The notes beneath the pieces were generated by a model that saw only the letters and a program-made list of their open reading frames with translations, was not told where the DNA came from and did no database searches. Below, in pieces: positions 16,608-49,577 of a DNA stretch of 64,000 nt. The translations under genes were made by a program, and so were the position numbers. Each line of letters starts with the position of its first letter. The stretch's first letter is position 1. The DNA lies in contig CATOCA020000002.1 of the NCBI GenBank assembly GCA_951406725.2, positions 186,001-250,000 of the forward strand, written 5' to 3'. This stretch comes from Octopus vulgaris. Taxonomy: Eukaryota.

Positions 16608-18344
16608 CGTCATGATAAATTTAAGTGTTAACTTAAGTAGGAAATAATTAAGGAAGTATATTATGTACCCTGCTGACATACTGTTTATATCCTTTAAAGT
16701 ATTATTTCATGACGTGCAAATGGATACCATGAGTTTACTATTGGATATACCCATTAGGTTATTTTTTTTTGTATTATCTGAAATAGAATACCCGCATATC
16801 TATTAATCCCCCAAAACTGAATTATTATTGACTTTTATCAGATACTTTGTATATTTCTAGATAAATATATAAATATATGATAAAGAATATCCCAAGGTAT
16901 GATATGTAGATGCATGTAATGCTGAAGGGTTGTACCTGATTGATTTGGAAATTCATTTTCCCACATTATTTAAATTAATCATACAATATGGATCTATTAG
17001 GTAGGATTGAGGTGATAGAGTGGAACTCATCTTTGAAGGATATACCTATTCCTAGTAGGAAAGAATATACACAGGACCTGATTAACCAGCGAAAAGAATT
17101 TATAAATAGAATGAAATGGAAGGCTCACTACTGCAATAACAACAATCCTAATAAGAATAATGCTAACATGGAAGATATAGACTACATAAAAAGAAACTTC
17201 AAATCTAAGCAGGAACCTCCCAATAATAGAATTATACAGGACTTTGAGGAGAAAATATGGAATATGGTGAAAAATATCAAATTCAAAAAATACCCTAACA
17301 GACACAACAAGCACCTCAGCAACTTAGCTAGAAAAATAGAAATATTAAAGAACTAAGATGGTGTTATAGTACAATCTGATGAGACCAGGAATTTATACAG
17401 ACTAGATACACCACTTCATGATAACCTACTAGAAAAGGAAATAATGAAAAAAATATAAGGTAGTTAATAAGAATTATTTAGATAATCCCCCCACCCAATT
17501 ATGGTTAAATATGGTATTGAAAATACAATTGAAGCATATGTCCTGATGCATCCAAAAATAAGGATTAAAGACCATAAGGATAATTTTTACTCAAACCTCC
17601 AAGTAAGGCTAATATGCCCAAGCAAGTCAGATATAGGCAGATTAGTAAATTAATATTAGATAAATATATCGTTAAATTAAATAGGATAGGTAACCTTAAA
17701 CTCTGGAATTGTATCCGAGATACTATAAAATGGTTTAATAATATTCAGGATAAAAATAGATGTAAATTCCTTCAAATTGATGTAGAGAATTATTATTCAT
17801 CTATAAATGAAGTGGTTTTAAATAAGGCCCTATCATATGCCATGAGAAAGGTAAATATGTCATTTGAAGAAGTCAAAGTGGTGTTGGCCACGATGAAGTC
17901 TATTATAACTACCTACTACTTATATCTAGGAACTGTACTAATAGGCCATTAGAATGCCTTACAAAGAAAATGTACAAGTTCTTTAAGAATTATGGCCTAG
18001 GGATATCTATAGAGAATGAACAATATGCAGTAAGTTATGTAGACATCAACCTTAATCTAGTCACTAATAAGACCCATCCATTCTATAAGTTGAATGAAAG
18101 CTTAAAGTATATTAGTTCTTTAAGTAACCATCCTAGATCAGTTAAAGAAGTTTTAATAGATGATATAAGCAAAAGAATATCTATGTTATCCTCAGATTAT
18201 GACACTTTTAATAAACATGCTCCATATTATAATAAAGCATTAAAAGAAGCAGGATATAACTCTAATATAAAATTCTTTAATTATTACGAACACAATAATA
18301 GAACAAGTAATCCTAATAAAACTAATAATAATTCTAACTGTGAA

Positions 18345-18680
18345 GGCGCATGGCTCAGTGGTTAGAGCGTCGAGCTTACGATCGTGAGGTTGTGAGCTCG
18401 AATCCCGGACCGGGCTGCGTGTTGTGTTCTTGAGCAAGACACTATATTTCACGTTGCTCCAGTTCACTCAGCTGTAGAAATGAGTTGCGACGTCACGAGT
18501 GCCAAGCTGTATCGGCCTTTGCCTTTCCCTTGGATAACACTGGTGGCGTGGAGAGGGGAGGCCGGTATGCATGGGCGACTGCTGGTCTTCCATAAACAAC
18601 CATGCCCAGACTTGTGACTAGGAGGGTAACTTTCTAGGTGCAATCCCATGGTCAGTGTCGTGACCGAAGGGGGTCCCGGA
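18345..18680 (+). mobile_element. Full-length tRNA-derived SINE nested in PLE
   Basis: A box tggctcagtgg, B box-like gagctcgaatccc, core gtgttcttgagcaagacact; possible TSD aattctaa. Confidence 0.9.
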
Positions 18681-19518
18681 TCCCGGAATTCTAATAGTAA
18701 AAATATGAATAATAATAAAAGACAATATAACAAACTAAATATGGATCAAAACAATATAGATGTTATTAATGATTACAATAATAATAGTAATATTGATAAT
18801 GAGAATATGATCAATAGTAAGAAAAATAGTAAATTATACAGAGATATAATACACCTGAGAATAACAATTTAATAACGACAATGTCTAATAATGATAATAT
18901 AAAAATAAAAAGTATATTATATGGTTAATTATTCTGTATGGGGCTCAAGTGATAACTAATATTATTAAGGAGACACTTAAAATTGTAAGAATTTTTTTTT
19001 TAAAAAAGGATAACAGTTATTCAAATATATTTTCCAATAAAACCATAAGAGTGGGATACTCAACACCGAGAAATGTTGATAATATCATTTCCTCTATAAA
19101 TAATAGCAAATTAAATAATTATTATAATAGCATAATAAATAATAGCTCTAGCCATAATACAACCGATAGTGATAAAAGTCTTAATCAACATACAGAAAAA
19201 TGTTCATGTTGTGATAAGACTAAATGTAAGCTCTCTAATAATTGTAATATTGATAATGTGATTTATAAATGTATACTAAGCCCCAAGAACAATAATAATA
19301 AAATTATAAGGTTTATATTGGATCAACAGCTACTGAAATTAAAAAAAGAATATCCCAACACTATCAGACCTTCAAACATCCTAATTTAAGTAAGTCCATG
19401 TCATAAGGTATGTTATTAATAATATTACAAGGATGGTTACTCTGTGCATGTATATCAGTAATATTGTTATTGGGTTTATAGTATGGTTGGTAAAATGATG
19501 TAGTGAGGTTAAAATTTA

Positions 19519-20670: not shown

Positions 20671-20674
20671 AATA

Positions 20675-23045
20675 ACTTTCTTATTGACTCCTCAGTTAAA
20701 TTGATTTGTCCTTCTAAATCTAATATAGGTATTATTAGTAAAAAAAATCATTGACAGGGTAATACCTGTCCTTAAGTCTAAAATTAGATTAGCCCTCTGG
20801 TCTGATATCCTAGAGGTGGTTGAATGGTTCAAGCTTCTAGAAATTAGTAAGACTAGTAAATTCTTGCAACTAGATATAAAGAGTTACTATGCCACTATCA
20901 ACCTGATTGTTCTTAATCAAGCCATGATTTTTAGCATAAAAATTCCGATTTGTCCCGACGTGAAACAGATGTTATACTTGCAGTGCGAGCTACTCTAGTA
21001 GATTCTGATGGTAGATTATGGAGTAGATTAGATACAGAAAATGCATTTGATATAACAATGGGCCCACACAATTCTGCTCAGGCCAGTGACCTAGTCAGAA
21101 TATATATCCTTTCATTAATCCAGACTTCCTTTCTGGAAATAACAGGGGGTCTATACAGGTATGATGCCTTATTTTTTCTAGAAAGAAGTAGTAAAGTACA
21201 GTTAGAAAGGCATAGGAAATATTTCTTCAGACTTTTCAAAAATTTAGGACTAAACATTACTATATGTAAAGGTTATCATAGAGTGAATTTTCTTGATTCC
21301 ACCTTCTGTCTTGATACTGGATTATTTGAATCATTTCATAAGCCAAATGATCATATTAAGTACATTAACATAGCATCCAATCATCCACCCTTAATTATAT
21401 GGGGTCTAGTTAAGAATATTTCTATAAGAATCTCTAGATCATCTGCTAACAATAACATTTTCGAATTTTATGCATCTTATTATAATGATGCTCTAGCAAG
21501 AAGCAGGCATAAGCAATGCTAGTAATTCCTACAACTACAATGCATATCATATACCACCACAATGTTACTGTTTGAGAACTCACTTGGATAAAGAATACAG
21601 GCCAGAAAGAAGTGGTCATATCAATGAACTACCAATGAAACTCATAGACACAAGTGACATAATAATCTAACTGCTTGTTCCAATCCTGTACAACACACTC
21701 AATCAAATAAGCCTAACAACAGATATAGGAATCAGGATGTCCTCTGGCTCAACCCCATTTTTGATTTGCATGTTTCAACCAAGATTGCTGGAAAATTTGT
21801 TGCTGCTTTGGACAAGTGATTTCCTAAATCTAATCAGTATTTAGAGCAGCTTATGCATTGCCTAAACAATAGCAAAATGTGTTAAAGTTTCAATAACCCA
21901 CCTACTGGATCTAGCAAACATTTGCATTTAGATGTAAACCGCATTGATAAACCCCAACTACAACCAATTTGTAGTAGTAGAAATACTCATGGTACAGCTG
22001 GCACAGTAACAACGCTGGTTAATGGAGTCAGGGATGTCTTATATACAAATAAATACGATAAATGCTCATGCAGAGAAAAATCAAAACGTCCTTTGATGAA
22101 TATCTGTTTGAGTACAAATTTTGTATATAAATCTACTGTGCACACAAGGGGAGGGCCATATGTTTACATTGGGCAGACGGCTGATGCATTTAAGAATCGT
22201 TATCATAACCATGTTGCCAACTTTAAGACAATCAATAAGAGACATTCAACATCTTTGGCATATTTTGTATGGTGACTGAAGGAGAATAAAACAAAGTACA
22301 GCATTAACTGGTCCATAGTAAGGTAAGCAAAACCATACAATATAATTTCCAGAAGATGCAGTCTCTGATCCAAGGAATCCCTGTCTCTTCTGTGGACTAA
22401 TGAGAAAATAATTGATAGAATTTTTGAACAACTCTCAAGATGCCTACATGCATATAAATGTACTTTCACACAATGCAGTGAGAATGAATTTTGAGTAACC
22501 ATTAACTTAATTTAATTCAATTTAATTTAAGGTATACATGACTTAAGTTTACTTTTAACCTCCCCATTCTTATAAACACCAAGTAAATAACTAACTTTGT
22601 GATCATGAGTGCAACAAACCTTACATGTGCATATGCTCACAATTTTGCAGATGCTTGAATGAGCCTGTGTACCATGCAGCTTGCCCAATGGCGTTTATGC
22701 ATCTATATCTGTTAACAGTTATTTTTATTATGTTTCTGGCTGGATTACATGTTCGTTCCTCTTTTTGTCATCTGTGATTTTATTTTAGATCTTCTATATA
22801 AATGAAGATATATCCTCTGTCAGGCTGTTTTTCTCTCTATAAAATGGAAAGTTAGATTGTGGAAGAGTCATTTTAACAAGTATTTATTTATCACCTGATG
22901 AGATACATCTGCACCACTGGATGCTCTTGAACCAGTTGTTGAGCGTCCCACTCAAGAGGAATCGATGCTGGATGTGTCAAAACAATTGTCGTGATTAATA
23001 ATTCTCATATGTTCTATCTTCTGTCTTTCATTTGTTATATAAATA
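20675..23045 (+). mobile_element. Naiad-like PLE, 5'-truncated, with 3' pseudo-LTR
   Basis: FLQLDIKSYY, FDITMG, GGLYRYD, SNHPP, CSCREKSK, VYK...YIGQT...FKNRY. Confidence 0.9.
22890..22995 (+). ncRNA. Type-I hammerhead motif (GAAA mutated to AAAA)
   Basis: atcac CTGATGA gatacatc...gatgtgtc aAAA caattg TC gtgat. Confidence 0.75.
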
Positions 23046-23227: not shown

Positions 23228-23332
23228 TAATGACACGTGTTTCGTGGCTATATTTAAGAAATGATTATAGTAAAAAAATTAATAGTAGTAGTAAAATCAC
23301 TTCAATATAAATATAGCCACTCATCAGGTTAA
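23228..23332 (-). ncRNA. Type-I hammerhead ribozyme in a solo pseudo-LTR fragment
   Basis: aac CTGATGA gtggctatattta...taaatatagccac GAAA cacgtg TC att. Confidence 0.8.
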
Positions 23333-23369: not shown

Positions 23370-25615
23370 ATCATCATCATCATCATCATCGTTTAACATC
23401 CGCTTTCCATGCTAGCATGGGTTGGACAGTTCAACTGGGGTCTGGGAAGCCAGAAGGCTGCACCAGACCCAGTCTGATCTGGCAGTGTTTCTACAGCTGG
23501 ATGCCCTTCCTAACACCAACCACTCTGTGAGTGTAGTGGGTGCCTTTTACGTGCCACCGGCACAGGTGCCAGACGAGGCTGGCAAACGGCCACGATCGGA
23601 TGGTGCTTTTAACATGCCACCGGCACGGAGGCCAGACGAGGCTGGCAATGGCCACAATCGGATGGTGCTTTTTACGTGCCACCGGCATGGAGGCCAGTTG
23701 GGGCGGCGCTGGCAATGGCCACATTCGGATGGTTCTCTTATGTGCCACCGGCACTGGTATCGCAGCTACAATTTTCATTGATGTTGATCGATTTCGATTT
23801 TGATTTTCACTTGCCTCAACAGGTCTTCACAAGTAGAGTTTTGTGTCCCAAGAAGGGAAGGTATGCATAAGTGGACTGGCTACATCCCAGGTAGAGGCCA
23901 CGGGTTATGGTCTCACTTGTCCTGCCGGGTCTTCCCACGCCAAGCATACTTCCAAAGGTCTCGGTCTCTAGTCATTTCCTTGGTGAGACCTAAAGTTCGA
24001 AGGTCGTGCGTCACCACCTCGTCCCAGGTTTTGCTGGGTCTACCTCTTCCACAGGTACCCTAAACCGCTAGGGTATGGCACTTTTTCACACAACTATCTT
24101 CATCCATTCTCGCCACATGACAATACCAGCGCAAACGTCTCTCTTGCACACCACAACTGATGCTTCTTAGGTCCAACTTTTCTCTCAAGGTACTTACACA
24201 CTGTCGAGTATGAACACTGATATTACACATCTATCGGAGCATACTGGCTTCATTTCTTGCGAGCTTACGCATATCCTCAGCAGTCATGGCCCATGTTTCA
24301 CTGCCATCTAGCATGGCTGTTCATACACATGCATCATACAGTCTGCCTTTTACTCTGAGCGAGAGGCCTTTTGTCACCAGCAGAGGTAAGAGCTCCCTGA
24401 ACTTTGCCCAGGCTATTCTTACTCTAGCAGTTACACTTTCAGCACACCCGCCCCCGCTGCTGACTTGGTCCCCTAGGTAACGGAAGCTATCAACTATTTC
24501 TAGTTTTCCTCCCTGGAATGAGGCGGAAGTTGGTCTCTGCGCATTTTCAGTGTTTATTGCTCCTGAGCATCTGCCACATACAAAAACTATCTTCCTAGTT
24601 AGCCTTCCTTTGACATTGCATCTCTTATGTATCCATAGCTTACACTTGGTGCATCTTATAGAGTTTCTACCAACACCTTTTCTACAGATCGAGCAGGGTC
24701 ATCTACCTGAAGGCATTTGTGATTTGCCTGCCTTCCTACGAAATAGGACTTTGGTTTTAGCTAGGTTGACCCTAAGGCCTTTCGATTCTAATCCTTGTCT
24801 CCACACTTGAAACTTTGCCTCTAGTTCTGATAGTGACTTAGCAATTAGAGCAAGGTCATCAGCGTAGAGGAGCTCCCAGGGGCATCCTGTCTTGAATTCC
24901 TCCGTTATTGCCTGGAGGACTATGATAAATAGGAGGGGGCTAAGAACTGAAGCTTGGTGGACTCCTACCTCTACCCGGAATTCTTCACTGTACTCATTGC
25001 CAACACTCACCTTACAGCGTCCCTGTACATGGCTTGCACAGCTCTCACTAACCATTCATCTATCCCTAGTTTCCTCATTGACCACCAGATAAGGGATTGG
25101 GGGACCATGTCAAAGGCTTTCTCCATGTCAACGAAAGCCAGGTACAGGGGCTTATCTTCGGTTAGGTATTTCTCCTGCTGCTGTCTTACCAGAAATATGG
25201 CATCAGTGGTACTTTTCCCTTGCACGAACCCAAACTGCATCTCATCTAAACTAACTCTCTCTCTAATTAGTTGGGCTTTGACCTTCTCCGTAACCTTCAT
25301 TACCTGATCCAACAGCTTGATACCTCTGTAATTATTTGTATCTAGGGCGTCACCTTTACCTTTGTAGCAGTTGACTATCATGCTGCTACACCAGTCATTG
25401 GGTATGACTCCTTCGTGTATCACTTGGTTAACTATATGGGTGACTAGGCTATAGCCGACACTACCAGATATTTTAAGCATCTCTGCAGTAATTCCTGATG
25501 GGCCTGGGACTTTCCCTGTCTTCATGCTTCTAATTGCCTTAACTACTAAGGAACTGTCAACTCGGATAGCTGGTCCCTCTGTTGGGTTGACATTTGGCAG
25601 ACTCTCTTTATCCCC
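23370..25615 (-). mobile_element. RTE LINE, 5'-truncated (RT, Cys-rich insert, 3' UTR, (GAT)n tail)
   Basis: ORFs 25007-25525 and 24699-25055: YRGIKLL, QFGF, DMEKAFD, HQASVLSP, LYADDL. Confidence 0.92.
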
Positions 25616-25664
25616 TTCTATAAATCCATTATATAAACTAAGTATATTATTAATATGTATTTAT

Positions 25665-28392
25665 TTTTTTTTTATTTTATCTAGTTTCAGCTCATGAGCT
25701 GTGGCCATGCTGGGGCATCGCCAATATCTATAGATTTAATATTTCACACAATAATAAAAATATTACCTAATTATTAAAAAAGGAATACTCTAACGAAACT
25801 AATTCTCAACTCCTGCTGCAGGTGTGCAACATTGCTGGGGTTCTGTATTTTCTGCAAGATTTTCGTATCATCTGCATAGCTTCCCAGAGTGGCTATCTGG
25901 GCATTTGAGGGCATATCTGAGAGGGCCACTATAAAAAGCAGTGGTCCCAAGACAGTGCCCTGTGGAACACCGCTCACTATTTGTGTGTTCATAGAGGTGG
26001 CTCCATTAACCACTACGGCCTGACTCCTACCTTTCAGAAAGTCATGTAACCACTCTCCAAGTTTTCCAGCTTTGCCAAGGTCATGCAGTTTGTGGCATAT
26101 CATATCATGATCTACCTTGTCAAAAGCTTTTGCAAAATCAAGGTATATTACGTCCACATTTGATTTGTTGAGTAACTGCCTCAACACCCAGTCATAATGT
26201 TGTAAGAGCTGGGTCAGGCAGCTCCTACCTGGTCAAAAACCATGCTGGGTATCACTCAGCAAGTTATTTTCCTCAAGGAATGTGATTAGTTTCTTTCTGA
26301 CTATCCGATCCATGATTTTACTGATGTGTGAAGTCAGAGAGATAGGTCTATAGTTTTTGGCATCTGCTCTACTTCCCCCTTTATGTATTGGGCATATTAT
26401 TCCCTCCTTTAGCTTGCTTGGCAGTCTGCCATTTGTAAGAAAGCTCTGGAAGAGAATCTGGAGGGGTTTTGCCAGGGCATGCTTACACGCTTTGAGGAGG
26501 ATTGCTGGGAAACCATCAGGACCAGCAGTTGAGTTTGTGTCCACTTCATCTATGGCTAGTAGTATATCTTCTTCGCTAATGTCAATGTATTCCATTGTAA
26601 CTGCCTTGCTGGTTATAGGTGAGGCAGCAAAGAAGACCACTGGTTCGTTCACTTGTCTGTGTTCTAACGGGGTGGTAAAGACACTTTTGAACTGGTCATT
26701 CAGTATCTCACTGATCTTAGTTGGACTGTCTGTGAGAGAGCTATCCTCTTGAGGAGGGGTCCTATCTTGAAGTGCATTGAGGCTGTTTCTTTCGCGTAAT
26801 GAAAGAAGGCCTTTGTGTTTGACTTAATGTTTTTTATAACCCAGGCTTCTTTGTCTGCGTTCTCCCTCACATAGGATTGTTGCAGCCTTTTTTCAATCTC
26901 CATCAGTGTTGTTTTTAGGCAGGACGTTTCGCTACTTTTGGGATGTTGGTTGAGTCGATTTGCAAACTTCGTCTGTGGTCTCATGAGGATCTTCCTCTCC
27001 CTTGGAATCTTGCTCCTATTTGTTTTGGCCTTGTGTTCTGGGACATATTACTGGCATATGGCTTGCACAGAAGACATGAAACATTCTAGTTTCATGTCAA
27101 TGTCTGGTGTGGAGAGACATTTCAGCCAGTCCTCTCTGAGGATCTCTTTTTGGATTGATTTCCAATCTGCTTTGTGGAAGTTCAGATTGGAGAGATTTCG
27201 GGTGCTTCCTTTAGACTGTATGTCTCTGGTTACTTTCGACCCAAACATAGACAGCTCTATTATGTTGTGATCCAAGACTAATGTCGGTGTCACTTTCACA
27301 TCACGAATGATGTCCATATTGTTCGTGAAGCAGAGATCCAGAATGTTATTTGCCCTAGTTGGTCTGAGTACAGCTTGCTCTATGAATAGGCATTGGTGAG
27401 GTTGAGCAGGGACTCACACCTGTGCTTGCTTGCAATGAGTCATTCCTGAGAGTATGAGACCTTCAGGCCATTTGACGTTGGGGAAGTTGAAATCACACAT
27501 AAGAAATATGGTCACTTGGTGTTCCAGATTCATGAGGATTTCTTTAATTTTTGTGAGGCAATCTTCAAACTTGCCTATAAGGTTTGGGACATCTGGTGGG
27601 CAATATGTATTGCATATGACTATATTATGTTCTCTTATGTATACAATTAGAGTGTCACATACCGAATTTGAGTATGACAGTAAGAGCTGGGGTGTGAGGT
27701 CATCACAGATGTATACAGCAACTCCACCATGGCTCCTTTCCCTTCTGTCTGTTCGCAGTATGGCATAGTTTCGTATGTATACTTCTGCGTCCTCTATATC
27801 AGGGCTGAGGTGAGTTTCCACGAGTGCTATGCATAGGGCTTGATTGCATGCAGTAAGATCTCTCAGGAAAGAAATTTGTTTCTATTTTGATGCAACAGGT
27901 CCTCAATATTTAGTAAAAGTATTGGGGTGACAGCTGTGCAGGCGTTAGAGGAGGCCATCCCGTGTCTGTTGACTGTGGTCTTGCATAGGGGTGGGCAAGG
28001 TTCCTTCTTTGTGCTTAGTATAGCCAGGTTAGCTGCTGTACAATCCTTTGAGCCATGCACAAAAAAGACTCTTGCTCAGCTGCTGCATTCTGCAGAACAT
28101 CTGAGGAGCACACTTCTTTTCTGAATGTTTTCCTTGGAGACATCTGTTGTCCTTCTTCAGTGAAGTTTCTCTTTTTAAGGCCCCTGTAGTTCTGGCAGGG
28201 TGTCGGGTGGGCAAACCGGTAGTTTTTGCCGTCCTCCCCATGCCAACATTTGCCCTGCAGGTAAAATTTGCAGGTTCTTGAGTGCCTTCCAGATTTCTTC
28301 TTTCTTGTAGGGTTTGGGATAGCATAGGATTCTCCATGGGATTTTCTGTTGTTTATTTGGTGGGTCGGGGTTTCGTTTTGGTCGTTTTGCCT
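25665..28392 (-). mobile_element. CR1-like LINE (ORF1 remnant, APE endonuclease, RT, internally deleted 3' end and tail)
   Basis: ETHL, RTDR...HGGVAVY, DFNFP, LDLCF, DHNII, YRPISLTS, DFAKAFD, GVPQGTVLGP, YADD; tail at 25680-25722. Confidence 0.92.
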
Positions 28393-28453
<61 letters not shown>

Positions 28454-29265
28454 TCAAGAGTTAAGTAAACATTTTTATTTAAGAAATATTATTGTATTCT
28501 ATATAACTATTGATTGTTAAATTTGTATTTATAATTATCTTAGTTGTTAATGATAATTTAGATATGTACATTTATTTAATTATTATTCATATATAATTAT
28601 TATAACTGAACTTAAATTTTAAGATATTAGTTAGTCACTGTGGTATATAGATCATAAAAATTTTTTTTGATAATGATGATGATAGTGATGATAACAGTAA
28701 TAATAAGATTGTTTTAAAGATAGGTTATACGGTTTTAATTTGATTTTTCAATTTTTCAATTGTATTTTATAAATATATTCTATAGATATTTATAATATTT
28801 ATGTAAGTAATAATGGACTAATTTATTTTTGGTTATACGCTTATATATTTATTGATAGAGAAAATTTTAGATTTTTAATCACTATATTTGTTGATTATAA
28901 TTTAGATACTTAATGTTTTGCATTTTTTATTTTATAATTATTAGATGTGAACTTAAATCTAAAAATATTAATAGTGATAATTTTGTTAAATAATTTGGTA
29001 ATTAAATATTGGAGTATAACTGAGTTAAAGATATTCGATAATTTATTATGTTTTTTAAGCCAAATTATATCTTCAAAAATAAATACATATTTACCTTAAA
29101 AATTAAATATTTAACATAATGAATGTGTTGTAGGAAATAATCATAATGTTTTAAGTTTCAAATTTAGTTAAATGGAGTTTTTTCTATAAGAAAAATTATT
29201 ACTTTATTTATTTTTTAAATAAATATTGTTTAACTCTATTTGCTCATTTATTTAACTATTAACAT

Positions 29266-29368
29266 TAAGATGAAGACTGACTATAATTTTAAATCGAATT
29301 TATTTCAATTGAATTTAGACTTAATTGTAATTCGAATTTAATTGTAGCCATGAAACGTACGTAGTTTT
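29266..29368 (+). ncRNA. Degenerate hammerhead motif at the end of a very AT-rich PLE-type 3' region
   Basis: aTGAAGA ctgactataatt...aattgtagccat GAAA cgtacg TA gttt. Confidence 0.55.
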
Positions 29369-29532
29369 TTTTACTTATTATATATTGATCATTCATTTTA
29401 TACATTTTGAGATCTAGTTATATGTTTTATAAAAATATATATTTGTTATTTATGTTTTGGTTTATGTCTATCACTGTTTGAGTCGCATAATAGTGGTTTT
29501 ATCTCTAATTTATATTTTATATATATATATAG

Positions 29533-29564
<32 letters not shown>

Positions 29565-29846
29565 TTAATTAATAAGGGTGAGAGAATTAGATACTAATTT
29601 AATAGTATATTTATTCAACACCAAGTGGCCTAGTGCTTCGAGAAACCTGGATTATTATAATATTTTATAACATATTATAATATTTTTACAAAATAAATAT
29701 AAGAGAGTGGTCACTATATTGCTCACTCTAGCACCAGTTAATCCAAAAGGTTTCAACCACGAAAATACATGCTTACCATGAAAGTCAGTACGATTGTTAG
29801 CTCACACGGACAGGGCAAATAAAAAATAACAAAAATACAGATTATT

Positions 29847-29926
29847 TTGGGACAATTGTTTCGCTATTAATGAATTAAATGTAATTTTACTTACAAAAAA
29901 AAATCCATTTGTAGCTCGTCAGCCAA
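29847..29926 (-). ncRNA. Type-I hammerhead ribozyme
   Basis: Reverse complement of the motif at 30885-30963. Confidence 0.85.
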
Positions 29927-30884
29927 GACTATCTGGATGAAATCCGCTCAATCACACGCCAGATTTTACCATAACGATAAATACGCGTGTGGTTCAATTG
30001 ATTACATCCGACGTTATAATTCAAATGCCCCAACCAACAGCGCGCCAAACTTACACGGAAAACAAATACAGCATTTAGAAATAAATGCAGCATAATTATA
30101 ATTAATTAATAAGGGTGAGAGAATTAGATACTAATTTAATAGTATATTTATTCAACACCAAGTGGCCTAGTGCTTCGAGAAACCTGGATTATTATAATAT
30201 TTTATAACATATTATAATATTTTTACAAAATAAATATAAGAGAGTGGTCACTATATTGCTCACTCTAGCACCAGTTAATCCAAAAGGTTTCAACCACGAA
30301 AATACATGCTTACCATGAAAGTCAGTACGATTGTTAGCTCACACGGACAGGGCAAATAAAAAATAACAAAAATACAGATTATTTTGGGACAATTGTTTCG
30401 CTATTAATGAATTAAATGTAATTTTAAAATAATCTGTATTTTTGTTATTTTTTATTTGCCCTGTCCGTGTGAGCTAACAATCGTACTGACTTTCATGGTA
30501 AGCATGTATTTTCGTGGTTGAAACCTTTTGGATTAACTGGTGCTAGAGTGAGCAATATAGTGACCACTCTCTTATATTTATTTTGTAAAAATATTATAAT
30601 ATGTTATAAAATATTATAATAATCCAGGTTTCTCGAAGCACTAGGCCACTTGGTGTTGAATAAATATACTATTAAATTAGTATCTAATTCTCTCACCCTT
30701 ATTAATTAATTATAATTATGCTGCATTTATTTCTAAATGCTGTATTTGTTTTCCGTGTAAGTTTGGCGCGCTGTTGGTTGGGGCATTTGAATTATAACGT
30801 CGGATGTAATCAATTGAACCACACGCGTATTTATCGTTATGGTAAAATATGGCGTGTGATTGAGCGGATTTCATCCAGATAGTC

Positions 30885-30963
30885 TTGGCTGACGAGCTAC
30901 AAATGGATTTTTTTTGTAAGTAAAATTACATTTAATTCATTAATAGCGAAACAATTGTCCCAA
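30885..30963 (+). ncRNA. Type-I hammerhead ribozyme
   Basis: ttgg CTGACGA gcta...tagc GAAA caattg TC ccaa; predicted cleavage after 30959. Confidence 0.88.
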
Positions 30964-31420
30964 AATAATCTGTATTTTTGTTATTTTTTATTTGCCCTGT
31001 CCGTGTGAGCTAACAATCGTACTGACTTTCATGGTAAGCATGTATTTTCGTGGTTGAAACCTTTTGGATTAACTGGTGCTAGAGTGAGCAATATAGTGAC
31101 CACTCTCTTATATTTATTTTGTAAAAATATTATAATATGTTATAAAATATTATAATAATCCAGGTTTCTCGAAGCACTAGGCCACTTGGTGTTGAATAAA
31201 TATACTATTAAATTAGTATCTAATTCTCTCACCCTTATTAATTAATTATAATTATGCTGCATTTATTTCTAAATGCTGTATTTGTTTTCCGTGTAAGTTT
31301 GGCGCGCTGTTGGTTGGGGCATTTGAATTATAACGTCGGATGTAATCAATTGAACCACACGCGTATTTATCGTTATGGTAAAATCTGGCGTGTGATTGAG
31401 CGGATTTCATCCAGATAGTC

Positions 31421-31499
31421 TTGGCTGACGAGCTACAAATGGATTTTTTTTGTAAGTAAAATTACATTTAATTCATTAATAGCGAAACAATTGTCCCAA
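31421..31499 (+). ncRNA. Type-I hammerhead ribozyme
   Basis: Identical motif one unit downstream; predicted cleavage after 31495. Confidence 0.88.
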
Positions 31500-31653
31500 A
31501 ATAATCTGTATTTTTGTTATTTTTTATTTGCCCTGTCCGTGTGAGCTAACAATCGTACTGACTTTCATGGTAAGCATGTATTTTCGTGGTTGAAACCTTT
31601 TGGATTAACTGGTGCTAGAGTGAGCAATATAGTGACCACTCTCTTATATTTAT

Positions 31654-31696
<43 letters not shown>

Positions 31697-31909
31697 CAAA
31701 ATTAGAAAATGGAGAAACATACTTAAATCAATCAAACATCAACCATCAGATGATACCCAATCAATACTGTATTACACCATTACATAACAGTAAAGGCATT
31801 GTTGGGTACCTCTCTAGCAGTATATTGGATATATATTATCCCACGGTGGGTTGAATTTTCAACCCTTATCTCATTTTATAACTGATATATATATATATAT
31901 ATATATATA

Positions 31910-32310
31910 TAGTAATATAAATATTTTATAATTATATACATAATTATAGCAAGGGCTTTGCTTGCACCTCACCACACACTGAAAACTAGACGTCAAAAGA
32001 CACTATTGCCACCGTAAATTCTCCAAGAAAAACACACTGCACATAGGCCAGTAGAAGAAAGAACATGAAATACAAACTTTGGTTAATCCCGTACATGATC
32101 GTGTTTCGGTTAAAGTAATACAAAACTATACCTGTTTGCCCTCATCAGCAACGGTATACCCAACCATATAAACACTCGTATTTATATGGCTGGGTATACC
32201 GTCGCTGATGAGGGCAAAAAGGTAAAGTTTTGTATTACTTTAAGCCCGAAACACGATCATGTATGCATTTAACCAAAGTTTGTAATTCATGTTTTTTCTT
32301 GTACTGTGTG
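31910..32310. mobile_element. Fold-back pseudo-LTR fragment with a hammerhead in both arms (32088-32152 minus, 32201-32266 plus)
   Basis: CTGATGA gggc...gccc GAAA cacgatcat GTA; arms about 32045-32172 and 32181-32305; related copy at 33580-33850. Confidence 0.75.
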
Positions 32311-32332
32311 TGTGTGTATGGTTATATATATA

Positions 32333-32364
<32 letters not shown>

Positions 32365-32365
<1 letters not shown>

Positions 32366-32545
32366 CATCATTGTCATCGTTTAGCGTCCGCTTTCCATGA
32401 TAGTATGGGTTGGACAGTTCAACTGGGGTCTGGGAAGCTAGAAGGCTGCACCAGGCCAGTCTGATCTGGCAATGTTTCTACAGCTGAATGCCCATCCTAA
32501 TGCCAGCCACTCCGTGAGTGTAGTGGGTGCTTTTTACGTGCCAAT
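32365..32545 (-). mobile_element. RTE 3' tail
   Basis: catcgtttagcgtccgctttccatg...gcccatcctaatgcc. Confidence 0.8.
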
Positions 32546-32565
32546 ACATATATATATATTACTAT

Positions 32566-33141
32566 AGAACTAAGTTTGTAAAAGTTTTTAATTTTCATCT
32601 CATTAAATTTATCCAGCTTTTGTGTATCTAGTACACACTTCGCCTTTTAATGTACTTATATATGAATAATATATGGCGTGTCCTAGAACACCAGCGATAA
32701 TAATTAATTTTATTGTATCGCATTTGACTTTGTTTACGTATTTTCTCGATAAAATTTTGAGCGTTAGACGTTATACCAGAAAACCCTATTTTGTTGGGTA
32801 CGTTCTGAGTCTGCGCAGTGATTTGAATAGTTTAGAAAGAGCAATTTAATAGACGCATGTGCCTCTATTGATGTGCGCTTCCCATAATAACAGGAATCTT
32901 ACTGAAGAGCCTACCTGAGTAAATAAATATTATTTTTATTGCTGAAATAGGCGAAACTGCAGTCTAAGAAGAACTAAGTTTGTAAAAGTTTTTAATTTTC
33001 ATCTCATTAAATTTATCCAGCTTTTGTGTATCTAGTACACACTTCGCCTTTTAATGTACTTATATATGAATAATATATGGCGTGTCCTAGAACACCAGCG
33101 ATAATAATTAATTTTATTGTATCGCATTTGACTTTGTTTAC

Positions 33142-33143
<2 letters not shown>
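32566..33143 (+). mobile_element. ORF-less 404-bp unit plus ~174-bp terminal redundancy with hammerhead; retrozyme-like
   Basis: 32566-32739 is repeated at 32970-33143; flanked by (TA)n. Confidence 0.85.
32897..32969 (+). ncRNA. Type-I hammerhead ribozyme
   Basis: tctta CTGAAGA gccta...taggc GAAA ctgcag TC taaga; all three stems perfect. Confidence 0.9.
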
Positions 33144-33208
<65 letters not shown>

Positions 33209-33226
33209 CAGATATAGATATATATA

Positions 33227-33535
33227 GTGAGTGCAGTGGGTGTTTTTTACGTGCCACCGGCACAGGAGCCAGAGCAGACTGGCAAATGGCCACGATTGGT
33301 TGGTGCTTTTAAGTGTCACCGACACGGACACCAGTCAGGCGACGCTAGTATATGCCACATTCGAACAGCGCTTTTTACATGTCACCGGCACGGGTGTCTT
33401 AACTACAATTTCAATTTGAATTTTGATTTTGATGTTGACGAACTTGACTCAACAGGTCTCCTCAAGAACAGCGGTTCATTCTACGATCCAAGGTTAGCAC
33501 AGCAGGCTGCCCTGCGAGCCATGAACTCACTTCAT
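33227..33535 (-). mobile_element. RTE 3' UTR fragment
   Basis: Minisatellite units tttacgtgccaccggcacagg. Confidence 0.75.
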
Positions 33536-35468: not shown

Positions 35469-38400
35469 TCATCATCATCGTTTAACATCCGTTTTCCATG
35501 CTAGCATGGGTTGGACGGTTCGACCGGGGTCTGGGAAGTCAGGAGGCTGCACCAGGCTCCAGTCTGATCTGGCAGTGTTTCTACAACTGGATGCCCTTCC
35601 TAACGCCAACAACTCCGTGAGTGTAGTGGGTGATTTTTATGTGCCAGGGGAGGCTTGCAACGGCCATGATCGGTTGGTGCATTTTACGTGCTGCCAGCAT
35701 GGAAGCCAGCCATGGTGGCGCTGGCACTGACTGCGTACGGATGGTGCTTTTTACATGCCACCGGCACAGGTGCCAGGGGAGGCTGGAAATGGACACGATC
35801 GGTTGGTGGTTTTTATGTGCCACTGACACGGAAGCCAGTCAAGGCGGTACTGGTATCGGCCACGTATGGACGGTGCTTTTTACATGCCACAGGATAGGCT
35901 GTCAATGGCCACGAACAGTTGGTGCTTTTTATGTGCCACCGGCACGGAAGCCAGTCAAGATGGTGCTGGCATCAGCCACGTACAGATGCTGCTTTTTACG
36001 TGCCACCGGCACAGGTGGCAGGGGAGGCTGGCAGCGGCCTCAATTGGTAGGTGCTTTTTACAAGCTACCGGCACGGAAGCCAGTCAATGCGGCGCTGGCT
36101 TCGGCCATGTACGGATGGTGCATTTGTCATGCCACCGGCACAGGTATCGCAACCACAATTTCCATTTGATTTTTGAATCGGTAGGTCTCCTCAAGCACAG
36201 CAGGTCACCCTACGATCCAAGGCACTTTGGAAGGGTTGGGGCTTCTATGTGAAGCTGGTGTAGGAAACAGCCATGAACTCACATTATTTGTTGGGTCTTC
36301 GCAGTCACAGCATATCTCCAGAGGTCTCGGTCTTCCGTTATTGCCAACATTCGAAGGTCATGCTTGTCTTCCAGGGTCTACTCTACTCCGGATTCCTTCA
36401 ACTTTTTGGGAGTGGCACATCTTCACACATCTCTCCTCATCTATCTGTAGTACATGACCATACCAGCGCAGACACTTTCTTGCATGCCACATCCAATGCT
36501 TCTTATGTCCAGCATTTCTCTCAGGGCACTTACACTCTGTCGGGTATGCACACTGACATTACACATCCAGCGGATCATGCAAGTTTCATTTCTTTCGAGC
36601 CTACGCATGTCCTCTGCACTCACAGACCATGTTTCACTACCATGACGCATGGCAGTTCGTACACATGTGTCATACAATCTACCTTTCATTCTGAGTGAGA
36701 GACCCTTTGTCACCAGTAGGGGTAGGAGCTTTCTGAACTTTACCCAGGCTATTCTTATTCTATTGGTAACACTCTCTGAGCATCCACCCCCACTACTAAC
36801 TTGGTCACCTAGGTAGCGGAAACTATCAACTACTTCTAGTTTCTTCCCCAGGAGTGTAATGGAATCTGTTTTCTCAGTATCAATGGTGTCTATTGCCCCT
36901 GTGCATCTGCTGCACACGAAAGCTATCTTCTCGGTTAATTTTCCTTTGATGTTGCTGCACCTCTTATGTGTCCATAGCATACACTGAGTACATCTTATGG
37001 AGTTTCTACCTAAACCTTTTCTACAGATTGAGCAAGGCCACCTACCTGAGGGTGTGTGTGGCGTGTTTGCCTTCCTACTTACTAGAACTTTGGTTTTTGC
37101 TACATTGGTCTTTGCTACATTGACTCTAAGGCCTTTTGATTCTAAATCTAGCTTCCACACCTGAAATTTCTTTTCTAGTTCTGGTAGTGATTCTATGAGG
37201 GCCAGGTCATCAGCATAGAGGAGCTCCAAGGGGCATCCTGTTTTGAATTCCTCTGTTATTGCCTGGAGGACTATGATGAATAAAAGGGGACTGAGAGCTG
37301 AACCTTGGTGGACCCCTACTTCTATACTCATTGCCAATCCTAACCTTGCTGACAGCCTCTCTGTAGAGGGCCTGTACAGCCTTTATTAACCATTCGACAA
37401 TCTCCAGTTTCCGTATCGCCCACCAGATAAGGGATCGGGGGACCCTGTCAAAGGCTTTCTTCAAGTCCATGAAAGCTATGTAGAGGGGTTTATCTTTAGC
37501 TAGGTATTTCCCCTGCAGTTGTTGAACCAGGAATATGGCATCAGTGGTGCTTCTACCCAGCACAAAACCGAACTGCATCTCATCTAAGCAAACTCTCTCC
37601 CTAATGAGATGGGCTATAACCCTCTCTGTGACCTTCATCACCTGATCCAACAGTTTAATACCCCTGTAGTTATTTCTATCTAGAGCATCACCTTTACTCT
37701 TGTAGCAGTTGACTATGGTGCTGCTACGCCAGTCATTGGGTATGACTCCATTATGAACTACCTGGTTTACAATGCGGGTGACTAGGCCATAGCCCACACC
37801 ACCAGATGTTTTAAGCATCTCAGTAGTGATTCCTGATGGGCTGGGGGGCTTTACCTGGTTTCATACCCTTAATTGCTTTATCTACTAGGGAGCTGTCTAT
37901 TTGGATAGCTGGTCCCTCTACGGGGTCAACATTTGGCAGGCTCCCTCCTCCCATTCATTTTCCACATTCAGCAGTCTCTCATAATGGCTTCTCCAAGCCT
38001 CTTTCTTTTCAGAAACATTGAAAGCAAGTGCATCATCATCCATGCGGACGCATTTCTCTCCTGTGATATCACAATTTTCTCTCACACACTGTCTTGCAAT
38101 CCGAAATACCTCAGTTCATTGGTCCTCATGTTGCTGGACATTGGCAACATTCTTCTTTTTTGCTTCACCCTTGGCTATGTATACCTGCCGCCCAGCCTCC
38201 CTTTTGGCTACCTGGTACAGTTCCCTGCTACCCCCATCCCTCCAGGTTTTCCAGGCCTGTTTCTTTGCTCTAATGGCTTTGTCTACTGTACTATTCCACC
38301 ACCATGTAACTCTAGGTCTGGAAGGGACTTTGCACCATCCACAGACATGTCTGTCTGCAAGCTGTCCCGTAAGAATTTCCAGTTACTTTCTATGTCCGAC

Positions 38401-38982
38401 GTCTGTAACTCCTCCTCCCTCTCATCAAATTTCTTGATGAGGATGTCCCTAAATCTCTGACCATGTGAAGGGTTCTTTAGCTTCCAAATCCTTCTTTTCT
38501 GTATTGGTCTGCTCCTTGGTATCTTTCTGGCCTCAAGCCTAAAGTCACTAATGACTAACCTATGCTGAGGGGTACATTCTTTACCTGGGAGGGTCTTTGT
38601 ATTTAAGAGCAACCCTTCGTCCCGCTGTCTGGTGAGGATGAAATCTATTTGGCTAGCAGAGTCCCCTGACTGATAGGTTAGAAGGTGGCTGTCTGGCTTC
38701 CTGAAGTTAGTGTTGCAGATTAAAAGGTTACATGTATCACAGAATTCCAGTAGTCTAGTTCCCTCATCGTTTCGGGTGCCAATACCATGGCCACCGTGTA
38801 CCCCAGTGAAGATACCCGATTCCTGCCCAACATGCCCATTAAAGTCGCCAGCCACAAAGATGAGGTTATTGCCACTCGTCTTTGAGGTAGCCTGTAGAAG
38901 GGTATCATAAAAGTGGTCCTTCTGATCATTTGGTAACCCCACATGTGGGGCATAGGTAGAGATAATTGTAGCTGTGCCATTA
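35469..38982 (-). mobile_element. Near-complete RTE LINE (APE, RT, PHD-like Cys cluster, 3' UTR minisatellite), frameshifted
   Basis: ORFs 38283-38942 (GDFNGHVG, SQIDFIL, QHRLV), 37210-37818 and 36441-37337 (HQGSALSP, YADD). Confidence 0.93.
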
Positions 38983-39299
38983 TATATATATATATATAAA
39001 TATATATATATAAATAGATGGGTGTATTTTTACCTTATTAACAATTAACACGGGAAAAATAAATAAATAGTTACCAGGGTAGCAAAAATCTCACAAGTAA
39101 AGATGTTGTAACTCCTTGTTTATAAAGGTAGAAACTTTGTGTTTACGTGGATATATTTTGAATAATATATGAATAAATAAATGGAGTTTAACGCTGGTGT
39201 AAATCGAATATTTTTACTTTCGACACATGTTTCGAAAATTCCACTGATACTATTCAAAAGAATAAATGGTATAAACAATGCAATCTTCTTGTTTATGTG

Positions 39300-41490
39300 G
39301 TAAAGTCTGCAAGAACTGCCATGGCCTAAAGATCCACCAAGCGAAAATGAAGTGCCAGTTGGGACAAAGGTGTCCAACCTGGTGAGATACAGGAGGAGCA
39401 AGGCCTGGAGTCAACCCATAGTTCCTGGAACTGCCAATTGGTGGAAACTAATCCCCTGAGCATCAAATCTGACTGGAGGTGGATCAAATGACCAGCAGCT
39501 AACATGACCTCACTGTGGAAGCAGTTCGATGATGATGCCGACCAAATTCTAGAGGCAGTGGTAAAGGGAAAGGCTGACAAGAGGCAAGAAGCTATGGCAA
39601 CAATCATTGTGAACTTTGTAGCCAGATGATTTGGCAAGGAGGAGAAGAGAAGCTTACTCAAAGAATCAAAGAGTTGTTAGGATCCATGACATCAGGCAGG
39701 ATATGAAGGCACTGAAGTCTCAATACAAAGAAGGCTAGAGATGAGGAAGGTATTGGCTAATGTGTAGCCTACAGAAAAATATCAGGGTTCTCTGCCAAGC
39801 TGAATGGCACTGAAGGTGATGCTGTGAGAGGGCGCACAAGTGTGCTGCCTTTATTGCTAACCCCTTCAAGTTCACTAAGGATTTGTTAGGGCAGAAGTGC
39901 AGTGGTAAACTAGCCTCCTCAGAGGAAGACATAGACCAGCATCTGAACCATATGTATAGTGATCCCGCAAGAGAGCATGAGTTGGGAGACCACCCCGCTG
40001 AACCAGAGGTGGAGTTTGACATGACAGAACTGCAGCTAAAGGAAGTCAGGGAGGTTGTCTGCAGAGCAAGGGCAAGCTCTGCTCCAGGACCGAGTGGCAC
40101 TTCATACAAAGTATATAAGAACTGTCCCAAACTTCTGCTGCATCTGTGGAATATCTTGTGAGTTTCCTGGAGAAGAGGGAGGATCCCAAAATAATGGATA
40201 GTAGCTGAGGGGTGTGTGGATCCTGAAGGACGAAAACTCCACCCAGATAGACCAACCAATTTTGCATCATATCCCTGCTGTGTGCGGAGGCAAAGATCTT
40301 CTTCAGCATTGTTTCCAAATGGCTGTGTGCCTGCCTGGGTCAAAACACCTACATTGATACATCTGTCCAGAAGGGTGGCATTTTGAGAATGCCAGGCTAT
40401 CTGGAGCATACCAGTGTGGTATTCAAGAGGCAAGAGAGAACAGGGGTAACCTGCCTGTGCCTGGCAAATGCATTCGGTTCAATTCCACACAAGCTGGTTC
40501 AGCTCACGTGACAAAACATCATGTCCCCAGCAGGTATAGAGACCTCATCCCTGATTACTACACCAATTTCAGGATGAGGGTCCCTTTTGGAGCAATAACA
40601 TCACGCAGGCACAAGGTGGAAATTAGCTTCATCACAGGGTGCACTATCTCTGAGACACTATTCTCCCTATCCATGAACATGCTTACCAAGTCTGCTGAGT
40701 CAGAGTGCAGAGGGTCCCAATCGAAATCCGGACAAAGGCAACCACCCATTAGGGCGTTCATGGATGACCTCACAGTCATGACAGAATCAGCCCTAGGCTG
40801 CCAGTGGATTCTGCAGGGACTCAAAAAGATGATGGAGTGAGCTCAGATGCATTTCAAACCAACCCAAATCAAGATCTATGGTGCTGCGGAAAGGAAAGGT
40901 GGAGGACAAGTTCTGGTTTAACATCACAGGAACAGCCATTCCAACAATCACAGAGAAACCAGTCAAGAGCCTAGGCAAGATTTTCAACAGCTCATCGAGA
41001 GATACTACATCTATGTAGTCAGCTTGCATTGAGTTGGATGGCTGGCTGAAATCCGTGGTCAAGTCAGGCCCACTCGAGAAGTTCAAAGCCTGGGTCTACC
41101 ATCGCGGCATTCTTCCCAGAATCCCTCTTGTCCATGCAGTCCCCATCTCAACAGTAAGACCTTAGAGATGAGGGTCAGCAACCACCTCTGGAGATGGCTT
41201 GGAATATCAAGAAGCCTGAGCAGCATCGTACTCTACGGCAACACCATCAAATTGCAGTTGCCCTTCAAATCATTGGAAGAGGAATTCAAGGTGGCAAGAG
41301 CCAGAGAAGTGGTAAAGTACAGGGACTCTTGTGATTCGAAGGTGGCTTAAGCAGGGATCCAAGTGAGGACTGGCAGGAAGTGGAGAGCAGAATATGCAGT
41401 TAAAGAGGCAGAGGCAAGGCTGCACCAAAGGAGACTTGTGGGAGTGGTCACATGGGACAGAACTGGACCAGGCTCCTTTCCAACTCCCCA
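39300..41490 (+). mobile_element. Degenerate early-branching non-LTR retrotransposon, Hero/R2-like RT
   Basis: ASSAPGPSGTSYKVYKNCPKLL, IDTSVQKGG, AFGSIPH, ITGCTIS, RAFMDDLTV, SLEEEFKV, RTGRKW. Confidence 0.8.
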
Positions 41491-41749: not shown

Positions 41750-44100
41750 TTAGAGTATGTTTAGTTGTGGTCTGTATTTTTGAATAAGATTACTTTCCCT
41801 ATTTATTCGTGTTTGGTCTGTGGTGTTGTCCGAGCATTGGTATAGTGGGAAGACTAAGAATTTGGGGGACTTATTGTGTGCACAAAGGTCTAAGTGTCCA
41901 CTTAGTGGTATCTGTCTTGTGGAGGGGTCCCTCAGTTGTTGTTGGTGAACTGTCATTCTTTCTCTGAGGGTAAGGCTCGTTTGCCCTATGTAGTCTTCGT
42001 GGCATCCTTCACACCTTATGACGTAGAGTAAATTTTTTGATGCGCATGTGAAATTATTTTTTATGATGAATGTGTGTCCCGACCGGAACTTGTACGTCGA
42101 TCCCTCAATGAGGTGGATGCAAGTCCTGCAGTTGGGGCGACCACATTTTTTGATGGTGGGCGGTGGGTTTGTGTTGTGTAATTTTGCGTTGTTGAGGAGG
42201 TTTTTTAGGGATTTAGGTTGTCTCTTAGTTTTTATTATTTTATGAGCTGCCAGTAATTTTTTCAGGTGTGGGTCTTGATTTAGTTGTGGAATGTTGTTGT
42301 ATATAATAGTGTAAGCTTCTGCATTCCTTGGGTTGTGTGTTGAGAGATAGGGGAGGCTATTTACTGTACTGTGGATGTGTTTAGGTTTTTGTAGGTCTTG
42401 AGTGTTGATTGATTTGGCCTGTTCTATTCCGTTGTCTACTAGTGATGCCGGGTAATGTCTTTCGAGAAGAATTGCCCTTAGTTCCCGGAGTCTTCTATTT
42501 CATGTTGTGTCATTTGAGACAATTGTGCAGATTCTTCTCGCTAGGTTGAAGGGGATATTTGTCTTTGTGTGTTTTGGGTGATTGGAGGTGAATAGAAGGT
42601 ATTGTTTAGAGTCAGTGGGTTTGTAATGGATGTCAGTTTCAATGTTGACGCCTTTTTTAATGATTAGAATGTCAAGAAAAGGGAGTTGGTCCTGACTATA
42701 TTCCATTGTGAATTGAATGTTGTTATTTACACTGTTGATAAGGTTTTTGAAGTCTATAAGTTGGTCGAGTGTGTGGGACCATAGGATGAGGCAATCATCT
42801 AAGTAGCGTTTCCAGTTCTCCAACAGGTATTTGTGGAAAGACTGGCTGTACTTATATTTGGATTTTTCATAGATATGTGATTCCAGGTAGGCCATCACCA
42901 GGTTTGCATAGGTAGGTGCAACTTTCGTACCCATTGCAGTTCCTGAAACCTGTCTGTAAGTGTTGTTATTGAAATACATGAAGTTGTTTTGCAGAATAAA
43001 TTTGAGGCCCTCAATTATGAATTCTTTTTTTATTCTTTCCGGGATCTCATTGGGATATTTATCCAGCCAGAATTTAATGGCTTCCAGTCCATATTCATGT
43101 GGGATTGTGGTGTAAAGATTAATTACATCAAAGGAAACGATTAAAGTGTCTTTATCGGTATGTTTGGGGAGATGATTTAATAGGTCCAGGTCATCTCTTA
43201 CAATACTTGGAATGTGTTTCAGTATTGGTTTTAGGATGATATCTATAAAGTTGCTAAGTCTGTGTGTTTCACAACTTGGGCCTGCCACTATTGGTCTCAG
43301 TTTGAGATCAGTGGGATGTGGTATAGTGATGCAGGTTGAAGTGGACTTTTTGCAAGCTTCTGTGATAATTTGACTCTTGTGTATTTTTGGAAGCCCATAG
43401 AGTGTGCTGGTTTTGCAATTAAAGTTTGTAATGTAGTCGCATTCCTTTGCTGTTAAGTCATTCCGGTGTTGGTAAATGAGTGCCTTCAGTTTGGTCATTG
43501 TTTTGGATTGCTGGTAGTCGACTACTCTTTCATAGTATGTGGTATCCTCTAAAAGGAGAGATACAGAGTTTTTATACTGCTCAGTATTCATAATAACGAC
43601 CGTACTACCCTTATCAGCTTCCTTTATTGTGACGTCATGATTGTCTCGTAGCGTATGGATGATTTCCCATTCTCTTTTACTGGTGTTGGGTTTGGGTTTA
43701 GGTTGTGGGAGTTCACCATAAGGGAAGTTTGAGATGTAATCGCAAAATTTGTCTAAGGTTTTGTTTTTGCCTTTTACGGGATTATAGCTGCTTTTGTTAC
43801 GGACCATTGATTCGTCGTTATTATTAGTTTCCTTGTCAAAGAATTCCTCTGTGAGTCGTAATTTTCTGCAAAAGTGTGAGATGTCATCCTGTATTTCCCT
43901 CAGGTTAGGGTATTGCGGAGTTGGGGTGAATTTTAGTCCTCTTGAAAGGATTTTTATTTGTGGTGTTGACAGGTTTAGGTTAGAAAGATTCACTATTTTT
44001 GGTTTTTCGGGGTTGGTATCTACCATCTGGTGTCGTGGAAACTGATGCCCTTGCCTAAAAAAGGAATCCTGGGGGTTCTTCTATCTGCGGTATTTTGCTG
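41750..44100 (-). mobile_element. Young Neptune-like PLE; RT + GIY-YIG ORF of about 758 codons broken by one TGA at 42500-42502
   Basis: LSRGLKFTP, EADKG, YGLPKIHK, RPIV, GTAMG, RYLDD; in-frame continuation KCGRPNCRTC, LLYVIRC, YIGQT, H...H. Confidence 0.93.
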
Positions 44101-49575: not shown

Positions 49576-49577
49576 GA

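Follow-up and report, generated by a model that had tools for sequence, protein, structure and literature searches.

How did a repeat that carries a predicted self-cleaving ribozyme and no coding frame come to lie, in several copies and on both strands, inside a TA microsatellite of Octopus vulgaris? The question is raised by an array of 536-537-nt units at one locus of a 64,000-nucleotide stretch of DNA (the window). The answer to which we give somewhat better than even weight is that the unit is a non-coding hammerhead retrozyme, copied in trans by the RT/endonuclease of a Hydra-clade PLE from a probably circular 536-nt RNA.

Anatomy of the array

The array was placed by the preliminary description at 29560-31658; its location is right, but the precise start is 29561 and the right end 31656. 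It consists of two arms arranged head-to-head with a 1-nt overlap at 30426. The left arm (29561-30426, minus strand) holds 1.62 units and runs from a 5′ end at unit position 496 to a 3′ end at unit position 288, whereas the right arm (30426-31656, plus strand) holds 2.30 units and runs from unit position 1 to unit position 159 (position 1 of the unit is window 30962). The arms are more than 99.8% alike; the period is 536 in the plus arm and 537 in the minus arm, which has one additional T, and a single substitution separates the two full plus units. The claim of near-identical units without an ORF, embedded in (TA)n, is thereby confirmed, as are the predicted ribozyme cuts after 30959 and 31495, exactly 536 nt apart. 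These cuts bound a monomer at 30960-31495 (plus strand; 536 nt, 32% GC) that is highly self-paired, its folding beating that of 100 out of 100 shuffles (z −5.5). No coding frame was found in the concatenated unit (the longest ATG-started frame has 54 codons and the longest stop-free frame 69), a tRNA gene search of 29000-33500 returned none, and Rfam gave 0 matches to the array at gathering score. The Rfam matches by E-value were rejected as fold-back or AT-rich chance matches; the one of MIR841 type is the fold-back of the array, and no hammerhead model matched.

(TA)n tracts flank the array at 29518-29560 and 31657-31694, and because the array ends lie within (TA)n, a target-site duplication is unreadable. 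Each arm closes with its own motif. The right arm ends in ATAGTG-N5-TCTCT followed by an AT-rich run (31629-31656, plus strand), 161 nt past the predicted cut, and the left arm in TCACCCT followed by an AT-rich run (29561-29582, minus strand), about 291 nt past it; these two sites, S1 and S2, are 3′ ends family-wide. The array is inserted in the (TA)n tail of an older Hydra-type element, whose 3′ end at 29270-29517 (plus strand) retains a decayed hammerhead (cut near 29363) and then a site-1 end. We note similar nesting at three other loci (L059_60, L082 and L103).

Contigs of four out of four public runs, from four studies (one possibly the window's own source), cover all 30 bins of the unit. 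Those of three runs, presumed to be RNA, bridge the cut position, where circles, multimers and DNA are indistinguishable. Of 21 public entries listed, 20 contain the stretch, and none is recorded as RNA.

Several other elements are present in the window. A second, unrelated retrozyme-like insert at 32566-33145 (plus strand), with (TA)n on both sides, has a 404-nt period and 1.4 units; its own hammerhead at 32902 has a CTGCAG palindromic helix III, and its 3′ end lies 178 nt past the predicted cut. Decayed Hydra-like coding fragments occur at 16988-19397, 20674-22359, 48917-49578 and 61608-62790, and hammerhead-like motifs with a palindromic helix III at 23327 and 47949 (both minus strand). Broken LINE-type elements with RVT_1 and endonuclease domains lie at 24321-28488 and 36441-40478 (both minus strand).

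The hammerhead ribozyme

Every complete unit was said to contain an intact type-I hammerhead, and we find three complete ones: two on the plus strand at 30885-30963 and 31421-31499, with predicted cuts after 30959 and 31495, and one on the minus strand at 29847-29926, predicted to be cut between 29851 and 29850. At its truncated 5′ end, the left arm adds a hammerhead 3′ half (30385-30426, minus strand), which reaches the fold-back junction at 30426. In the copy at 30885-30963, helix I is UUGG/CCAA, the core is CUGACGA...GAAA and helix II is GCUA/UAGC. Helix II has a long branched extension of 40 nt, and helix III consists of 2 bp with a palindromic loop. The palindrome is predicted to be able to pair between two RNA copies; dimeric PLE hammerheads have reportedly been described.

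When the unit was dinucleotide-shuffled 3000 times, the full hammerhead descriptor matched 0 of the shuffles, and it finds 245 of the 258 complete hammerhead regions in the retrieved array loci intact. When the hammerheads of the unit and its relatives, 11 related sequences in all, are aligned, 95% of 193 cells are paired, compared with 25-41% in slid controls; eight helix pairs have changes on both sides, and the core CUGANGA/GAAA/NUH is invariant in 11 of 11. The sequences being related, shuffle counts for them are not probabilities. Read from this alignment, pairs that change together from one subfamily to another show that the ribozyme fold has long been under selection. We predict that hammerheads cleave the unit RNA, in which the active fold is calculated to lie 5.6 kcal/mol above the minimum-energy fold.

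A young family dispersed in the genome

An exact 30-mer of the unit has 2,654 matches in the 2.8-Gb genome (reversed control 0); extrapolation from the first 100 of them, which make up 39 loci, gives about 1,000 loci. We mapped 79 loci, about 8% of this estimated total: the window, 39 loci from the best similarity matches (a set biased to full units) and 39 chromosome-1 loci of the 30-mer (biased to arms with unit positions 255-284). Units of one arm diverge by 0.20% and units of different loci by 1.9% (by 2.85% among the chromosome-1 loci), and arrays reach 12.7 units per arm. The family is thus young and dispersed, and takes the form of tandem arrays. Older subfamilies (L291-L300, L202-L204 and L067:8342-8851), which are 60-79% identical and have periods of about 493-534 nt, use the same end sites; by these subfamilies, the lineage has seen several waves.

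Matches to two PLE query proteins showed the unit contiguous with a PLE ORF in 0 of the 79 loci. Separate PLE pieces lie 385-6442 bp from the array in seven of the 79, and the 35 single-arm loci have no common upstream sequence at one shared unit position. We therefore rejected the possibility that the unit is the pLTR of an autonomous PLE: it is joined to an ORF in none of the 79 loci and has no homology to the PLE leaders examined. Its earlier interpretation as a retrozyme-type element separate from a PLE ORF holds across the 79 loci.

Array ends and the two-site rule

It is the 3′ ends, and not the 5′ ends, that are diagnostic of these arrays. Across 130 arms in the 79 loci, 63 end at S2 (unit 274-295), 57 at S1 (150-165) and 10 elsewhere, and (TA)n follows the 3′ end in nearly all arms. 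S1 is 161 nt beyond the predicted cut and S2 291 nt, which leaves a 130-nt tail between them. There are 43 divergent pairs in the 79 loci; in 37 of these each end is at S1 or S2, and 37 out of 37 are mixed, one arm ending at each site. The remaining six have one irregular end each. At the inversion junction the arms overlap by 0-6 nt in 35 of the 43 pairs. A remnant of the opposite end, 7-19 nt long, is found at eight of the 35 single-arm loci (a same-end match, of 7 nt, at one of 35), so that a single arm may be one of a pair whose other member is vestigial. The older subfamilies keep both end sites, and their clearly inverted copies are mixed in four cases out of four.

The 5′ ends, by comparison, are scattered. 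They fall within 5 nt of the cut in three of 120 arms, where about 2.5 would be expected, and within 20 nt in 14 against 9.2 expected (p 0.075, a mild excess), and there are 267 read-throughs of the cut position. The plus arm of the window array does begin 2 nt past the cut position, as the preliminary description observed, but with 5′ ends scattered family-wide we attribute this to chance; it is no family trait, and the proposal built upon it, a template whose start is the point of self-cleavage, is not supported. The same description envisaged multi-round copying together with an inverted arm produced by a second-strand event. Both the copying and the arm are borne out, but the event is not an incidental one, as two fixed priming sites are used regularly. 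Its attribution of the insertion to a PLE is upheld by the two fixed 3′ ends, the (TA)n target and the inverted copies; 5′ truncation, inverted 5′-truncated copies and a microsatellite target are all PLE-type marks. That PLE machinery mobilises the unit is, we believe, very probable.

A candidate partner

Hammerheads with the same helix III as the unit have 2,004 matches in the genome (control 10), and most of the matches listed belong to one family, the end of a PLE with open frames of 838-841 aa (L241). The 10 copies listed are 98.2-99.4% identical. The protein contains KWK (a variant of RWK), DKT, CxCx5C, CxxC and CxH motifs, all of them marks of the Hydra clade, with GIY-YIG at its C-terminus; by eye, its N-terminus is like that of Hydra-1_Obim. 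Pfam does not recognise the protein, and its homologues carry PF26215. By these motifs, its hammerhead and its (TA)n target, L241 is assigned to the Hydra-clade PLEs. The copy at L241:2136-8446 is a young AT-rich element some 6.3 kb long; it has an 841-aa frame, an insert rich in asparagine and, as its 3′ region, 3.5 kb of GT-rich sequence. From hammerhead to hammerhead it measures 6310 nt, and two further loci measure 6838 nt (L250) and 5556 nt (L251), all longer than the norm of less than 3 kb for the clade.

The L241 hammerhead shares with the unit the helix III GAAACAATTGT. Among 56 hammerheads of the L241 family, 23 run to a first end (at about +98), 27 to a second (about +183), four into the ORF and two slightly short of a site; 50 of the 56 thus end at one of two sites, in (TA)n. 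By eye, divergent pairs of this family are mixed in 14 of 16 cases, and the two of the same type are compound loci with mixed outer ends. L241 and the unit have in common ATAGTG-N5/6-TCTCT before the first end and CCCT with an AT run before the second. Local alignment of the unit with the L241 leader gave scores that 213 and 326 of 500 shuffles also reached, and none of the PLE leaders examined has significant DNA homology to the unit. Without leader homology, the partnership with L241 rests on the short motifs and the shared behaviour. We regard a Hydra-clade PLE as the probable mobiliser, and consider the chances for and against the L241 family itself to be evenly balanced.

Other young PLE families with (TA)n-rich flanks are also present in the genome. 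A second young Hydra family (L263 and L269; C4 and C18) has about 40% protein identity to L241, and many L263-family copies match just the first 309 query residues, which suggests an amplified deletion derivative. In another young family (L141-L156), a 781-aa RT/GIY-YIG frame follows a separate 479-aa frame; a broken relative lies in the window at 41750-44080 (minus strand). The mobiliser might be one of these (L263, the 781-aa two-ORF family) or a Naiad, and not the L241 family, a reading to which the youth of these families, their flanks and the missing leader homology to L241 lend some plausibility. However, the same helix III, the ATAGTG..TCTCT first site and the CCCT second site were seen in L241-type elements only. 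In the single hammerhead observed next to an L263-family ORF, helix III is different and the end comes 40 nt past the cut, as seen within the 1.5-kb flanks to which our view of the 3′ ends of that family extends. The 781-aa family was rejected as source or partner: BLAST of the unit against its loci gave no match, so that DNA similarity to the unit is lacking, and the descriptor found no canonical hammerhead next to the end of the 781-aa frame, let alone a matching one. On balance, we consider a PLE other than the L241 family doubtful as the mobiliser.

Circle or multimer as template

Copying starts downstream of the cut and passes through it, so the template must have been circular or else an uncleaved multimer. 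The arm opposite within the same locus is, for 36 of 38 pairs, closer than the median foreign arm (0.23% vs 1.4%). Among the 14 long arrays (at least four units), nine have no minority substitution shared between units, yet their fixed differences from the window unit number 2-17. Uniform arrays with array-wide fixed differences imply a bottleneck of one unit, as rolling-circle copying gives. The other five of the 14 contain recurring minority variants, which point to multimeric or switched templates or to later conversion; L051_52, a 16-unit array in which two haplotypes of the family are mixed and a four-unit periodicity is partly present, is the clearest case against a single monomer template. 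We incline, with measured confidence, to a circular monomer as the template, and it is from the bottleneck that we infer circularity of the unit RNA.

The same PLE machinery could, at the same sites, have copied an uncleaved linear multimer, with the hammerhead idle at insertion. The 267 read-throughs of the cut fit such a template equally well, the recurring variants in five of the 14 long arrays are in keeping with it, the active fold is not the predicted minimum, and ribozyme mutants were without effect on PLE insertion in vitro (PMC11167929). However, arms copied from a linear multimer could only shorten with each generation, yet they reach 12.7 units, and the nine long arrays that bear up to 17 fixed differences without any internal pattern imply passage through a single unit. 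Long selection on the ribozyme fold, as judged from its covariation, also sits badly with an idle hammerhead. We suggest that a linear multimer is unlikely. It is far less plausible that a monomer or pLTR fragment inserted once and then grew in place into a satellite through unequal crossing-over or conversion; concerted evolution also yields uniform arrays, and some arrays do have recurring variants, but this does not account for inverted loci in which both arms are multi-unit and identical (L109: 0 substitutions over 18,761 compared bases), with precise S1 and S2 ends and random 5′ ends. A linear cleaved-monomer template with jumps at the cut, or a fold-back that is an assembly artefact, scarcely deserves credence: the window plus arm does have its start 2 nt past the cut, and long reads are known to produce fold-backs as an artefact, but the former is largely refuted by the lack of a 5′-end pile-up at the cut (three stops against 2.6 expected) and by the 245 of 258 copies whose hammerhead is intact across the junction, and the latter is countered by 43 inversions with different junctions that obey a strict end rule no artefact would follow.

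Relation to known systems

With its hammerhead-bearing tandem units, no coding capacity, GC below 50% and high self-pairing, the unit family is a member of the animal non-LTR retrozymes, one with unusually clear mobiliser footprints. The account of these retrozymes by Cervera & de la Pena (2020, PMC7229834) describes non-coding, AT-rich, folded tandem units with a type-I hammerhead in genomes that contain PLEs, and weak palindromic helices III in salamander motifs like that of the unit, and it proposes multimeric cDNA templated by circles. The unit differs in its length (536 nt, above the 150-450 nt or so given there), in the long branched helix II, and in its two fixed sites, mapped in (TA)n, with inversion as a regular feature; that the unit RNA is cleaved and forms circles is a prediction. 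Its length does fall inside the 51-972 bp range of vertebrate retrozymes, according to a preprint (Li, Clavereau & Pollet 2026, bioRxiv 2026.07.22.740005) that also links retrozymes to PLEs, as non-autonomous derivatives of them. There the link is made by co-occurrence and pLTR homology, whereas here it comes from insertion ends and without pLTR homology. In that preprint, eight of nine Xenopus retrozyme dimers were uncleaved in vitro and local tandem expansion is suggested; the insertion ends in the octopus favour arrays that were inserted ready-made, not expanded locally. Movement of retrozymes by PLEs is a published hypothesis, and a 2020 review (PMC7761336) states that animal retrozyme repeats have no motif indicating the mobiliser. 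Unlike in that account, such marks are present in the unit family.

A pair of neighbouring RT start sites, downstream of the hammerhead, is a biochemically shown signature of PLEs (PMC11167929; Frangieh et al. 2024). In Poseidon PAc of Anolis, the one PLE tested in vitro in that work, two internal RT starts lie past the hammerhead with a "tail" between them and an AT-rich target is cut on both strands, all of which resembles the unit family, and uncleaved RNA is the main substrate. PAc is autonomous and its tail is 30-40 bp; the unit is non-coding, has a 130-nt tail and uses one site per end in 37 of 37 pairs. In Craig et al. 2021 (PMC8557442), Hydra-clade PLEs share with L241 the protein motifs, the hammerhead, the (TA)n target, inverted 5′-truncated copies and a tail at one end, but are generally below 3 kb, where L241-type elements span 5.6-6.8 kb in three loci and have an 85-nt tail, and the L241 hammerhead differs from that of Hydra-1_Obim. 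A tail at one end and inverted 5′-truncated copies also appear for PLEs in Arkhipova et al. 2013. In the literature searched, we found no octopus or cephalopod retrozyme and no end-mapping of a retrozyme; subscription papers, Repbase and preprint supplements may describe the family. What is new here is the strict one-site-per-end rule (37 of 37) in a non-coding retrozyme, and its 130-nt tail; the one-end tail is known qualitatively in autonomous PLEs.

Proposed mechanism and implications

We propose that arrays would be transcribed, that the hammerheads would cut the transcript, probably as dimers, and that the monomers would be closed to circles. A PLE protein, as the array ends suggest, may then cut both strands of a (TA)n tract, and one target end would prime at S1 and the other at S2; the genomic pattern of this step is plain, while its chemistry is conjectural. 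Each enzyme would travel round that one template over a length between a few bases and about 13 units, stopping at random, and the two cDNA ends would be joined over the 0-6-nt overlap, which would give a head-to-head array that ends at S1 on one side and at S2 on the other. More tentatively, and with less than even confidence, we raise the possibility that a dimeric PLE enzyme acts on one circle with two start sites, that either end of the cut (TA)n target primes one of its active sites, and that both roll independently, so that every insertion is two-armed.

The mobiliser of animal retrozymes, the use of circles as templates and the role of the hammerhead in PLEs are open questions in the literature. 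The octopus family is young and of high copy number, its record follows a strict end rule, two start sites are mapped, and the same genome contains a candidate partner with open reading frames; the existing in vitro PLE assay can therefore test trans-mobilisation and the use of circles directly. For PLE biochemistry, an RNA of 536 nt that steers two-ended insertion into TA repeats would also provide a compact model cargo. If the two-armed mechanism is true and the 6-kb autonomous Hydra element follows the same rule, the hammerheads of PLEs would serve to make circular transposition intermediates, and the pseudo-LTRs, tails and inversions of PLEs would all be by-products of two-site rolling-circle priming.
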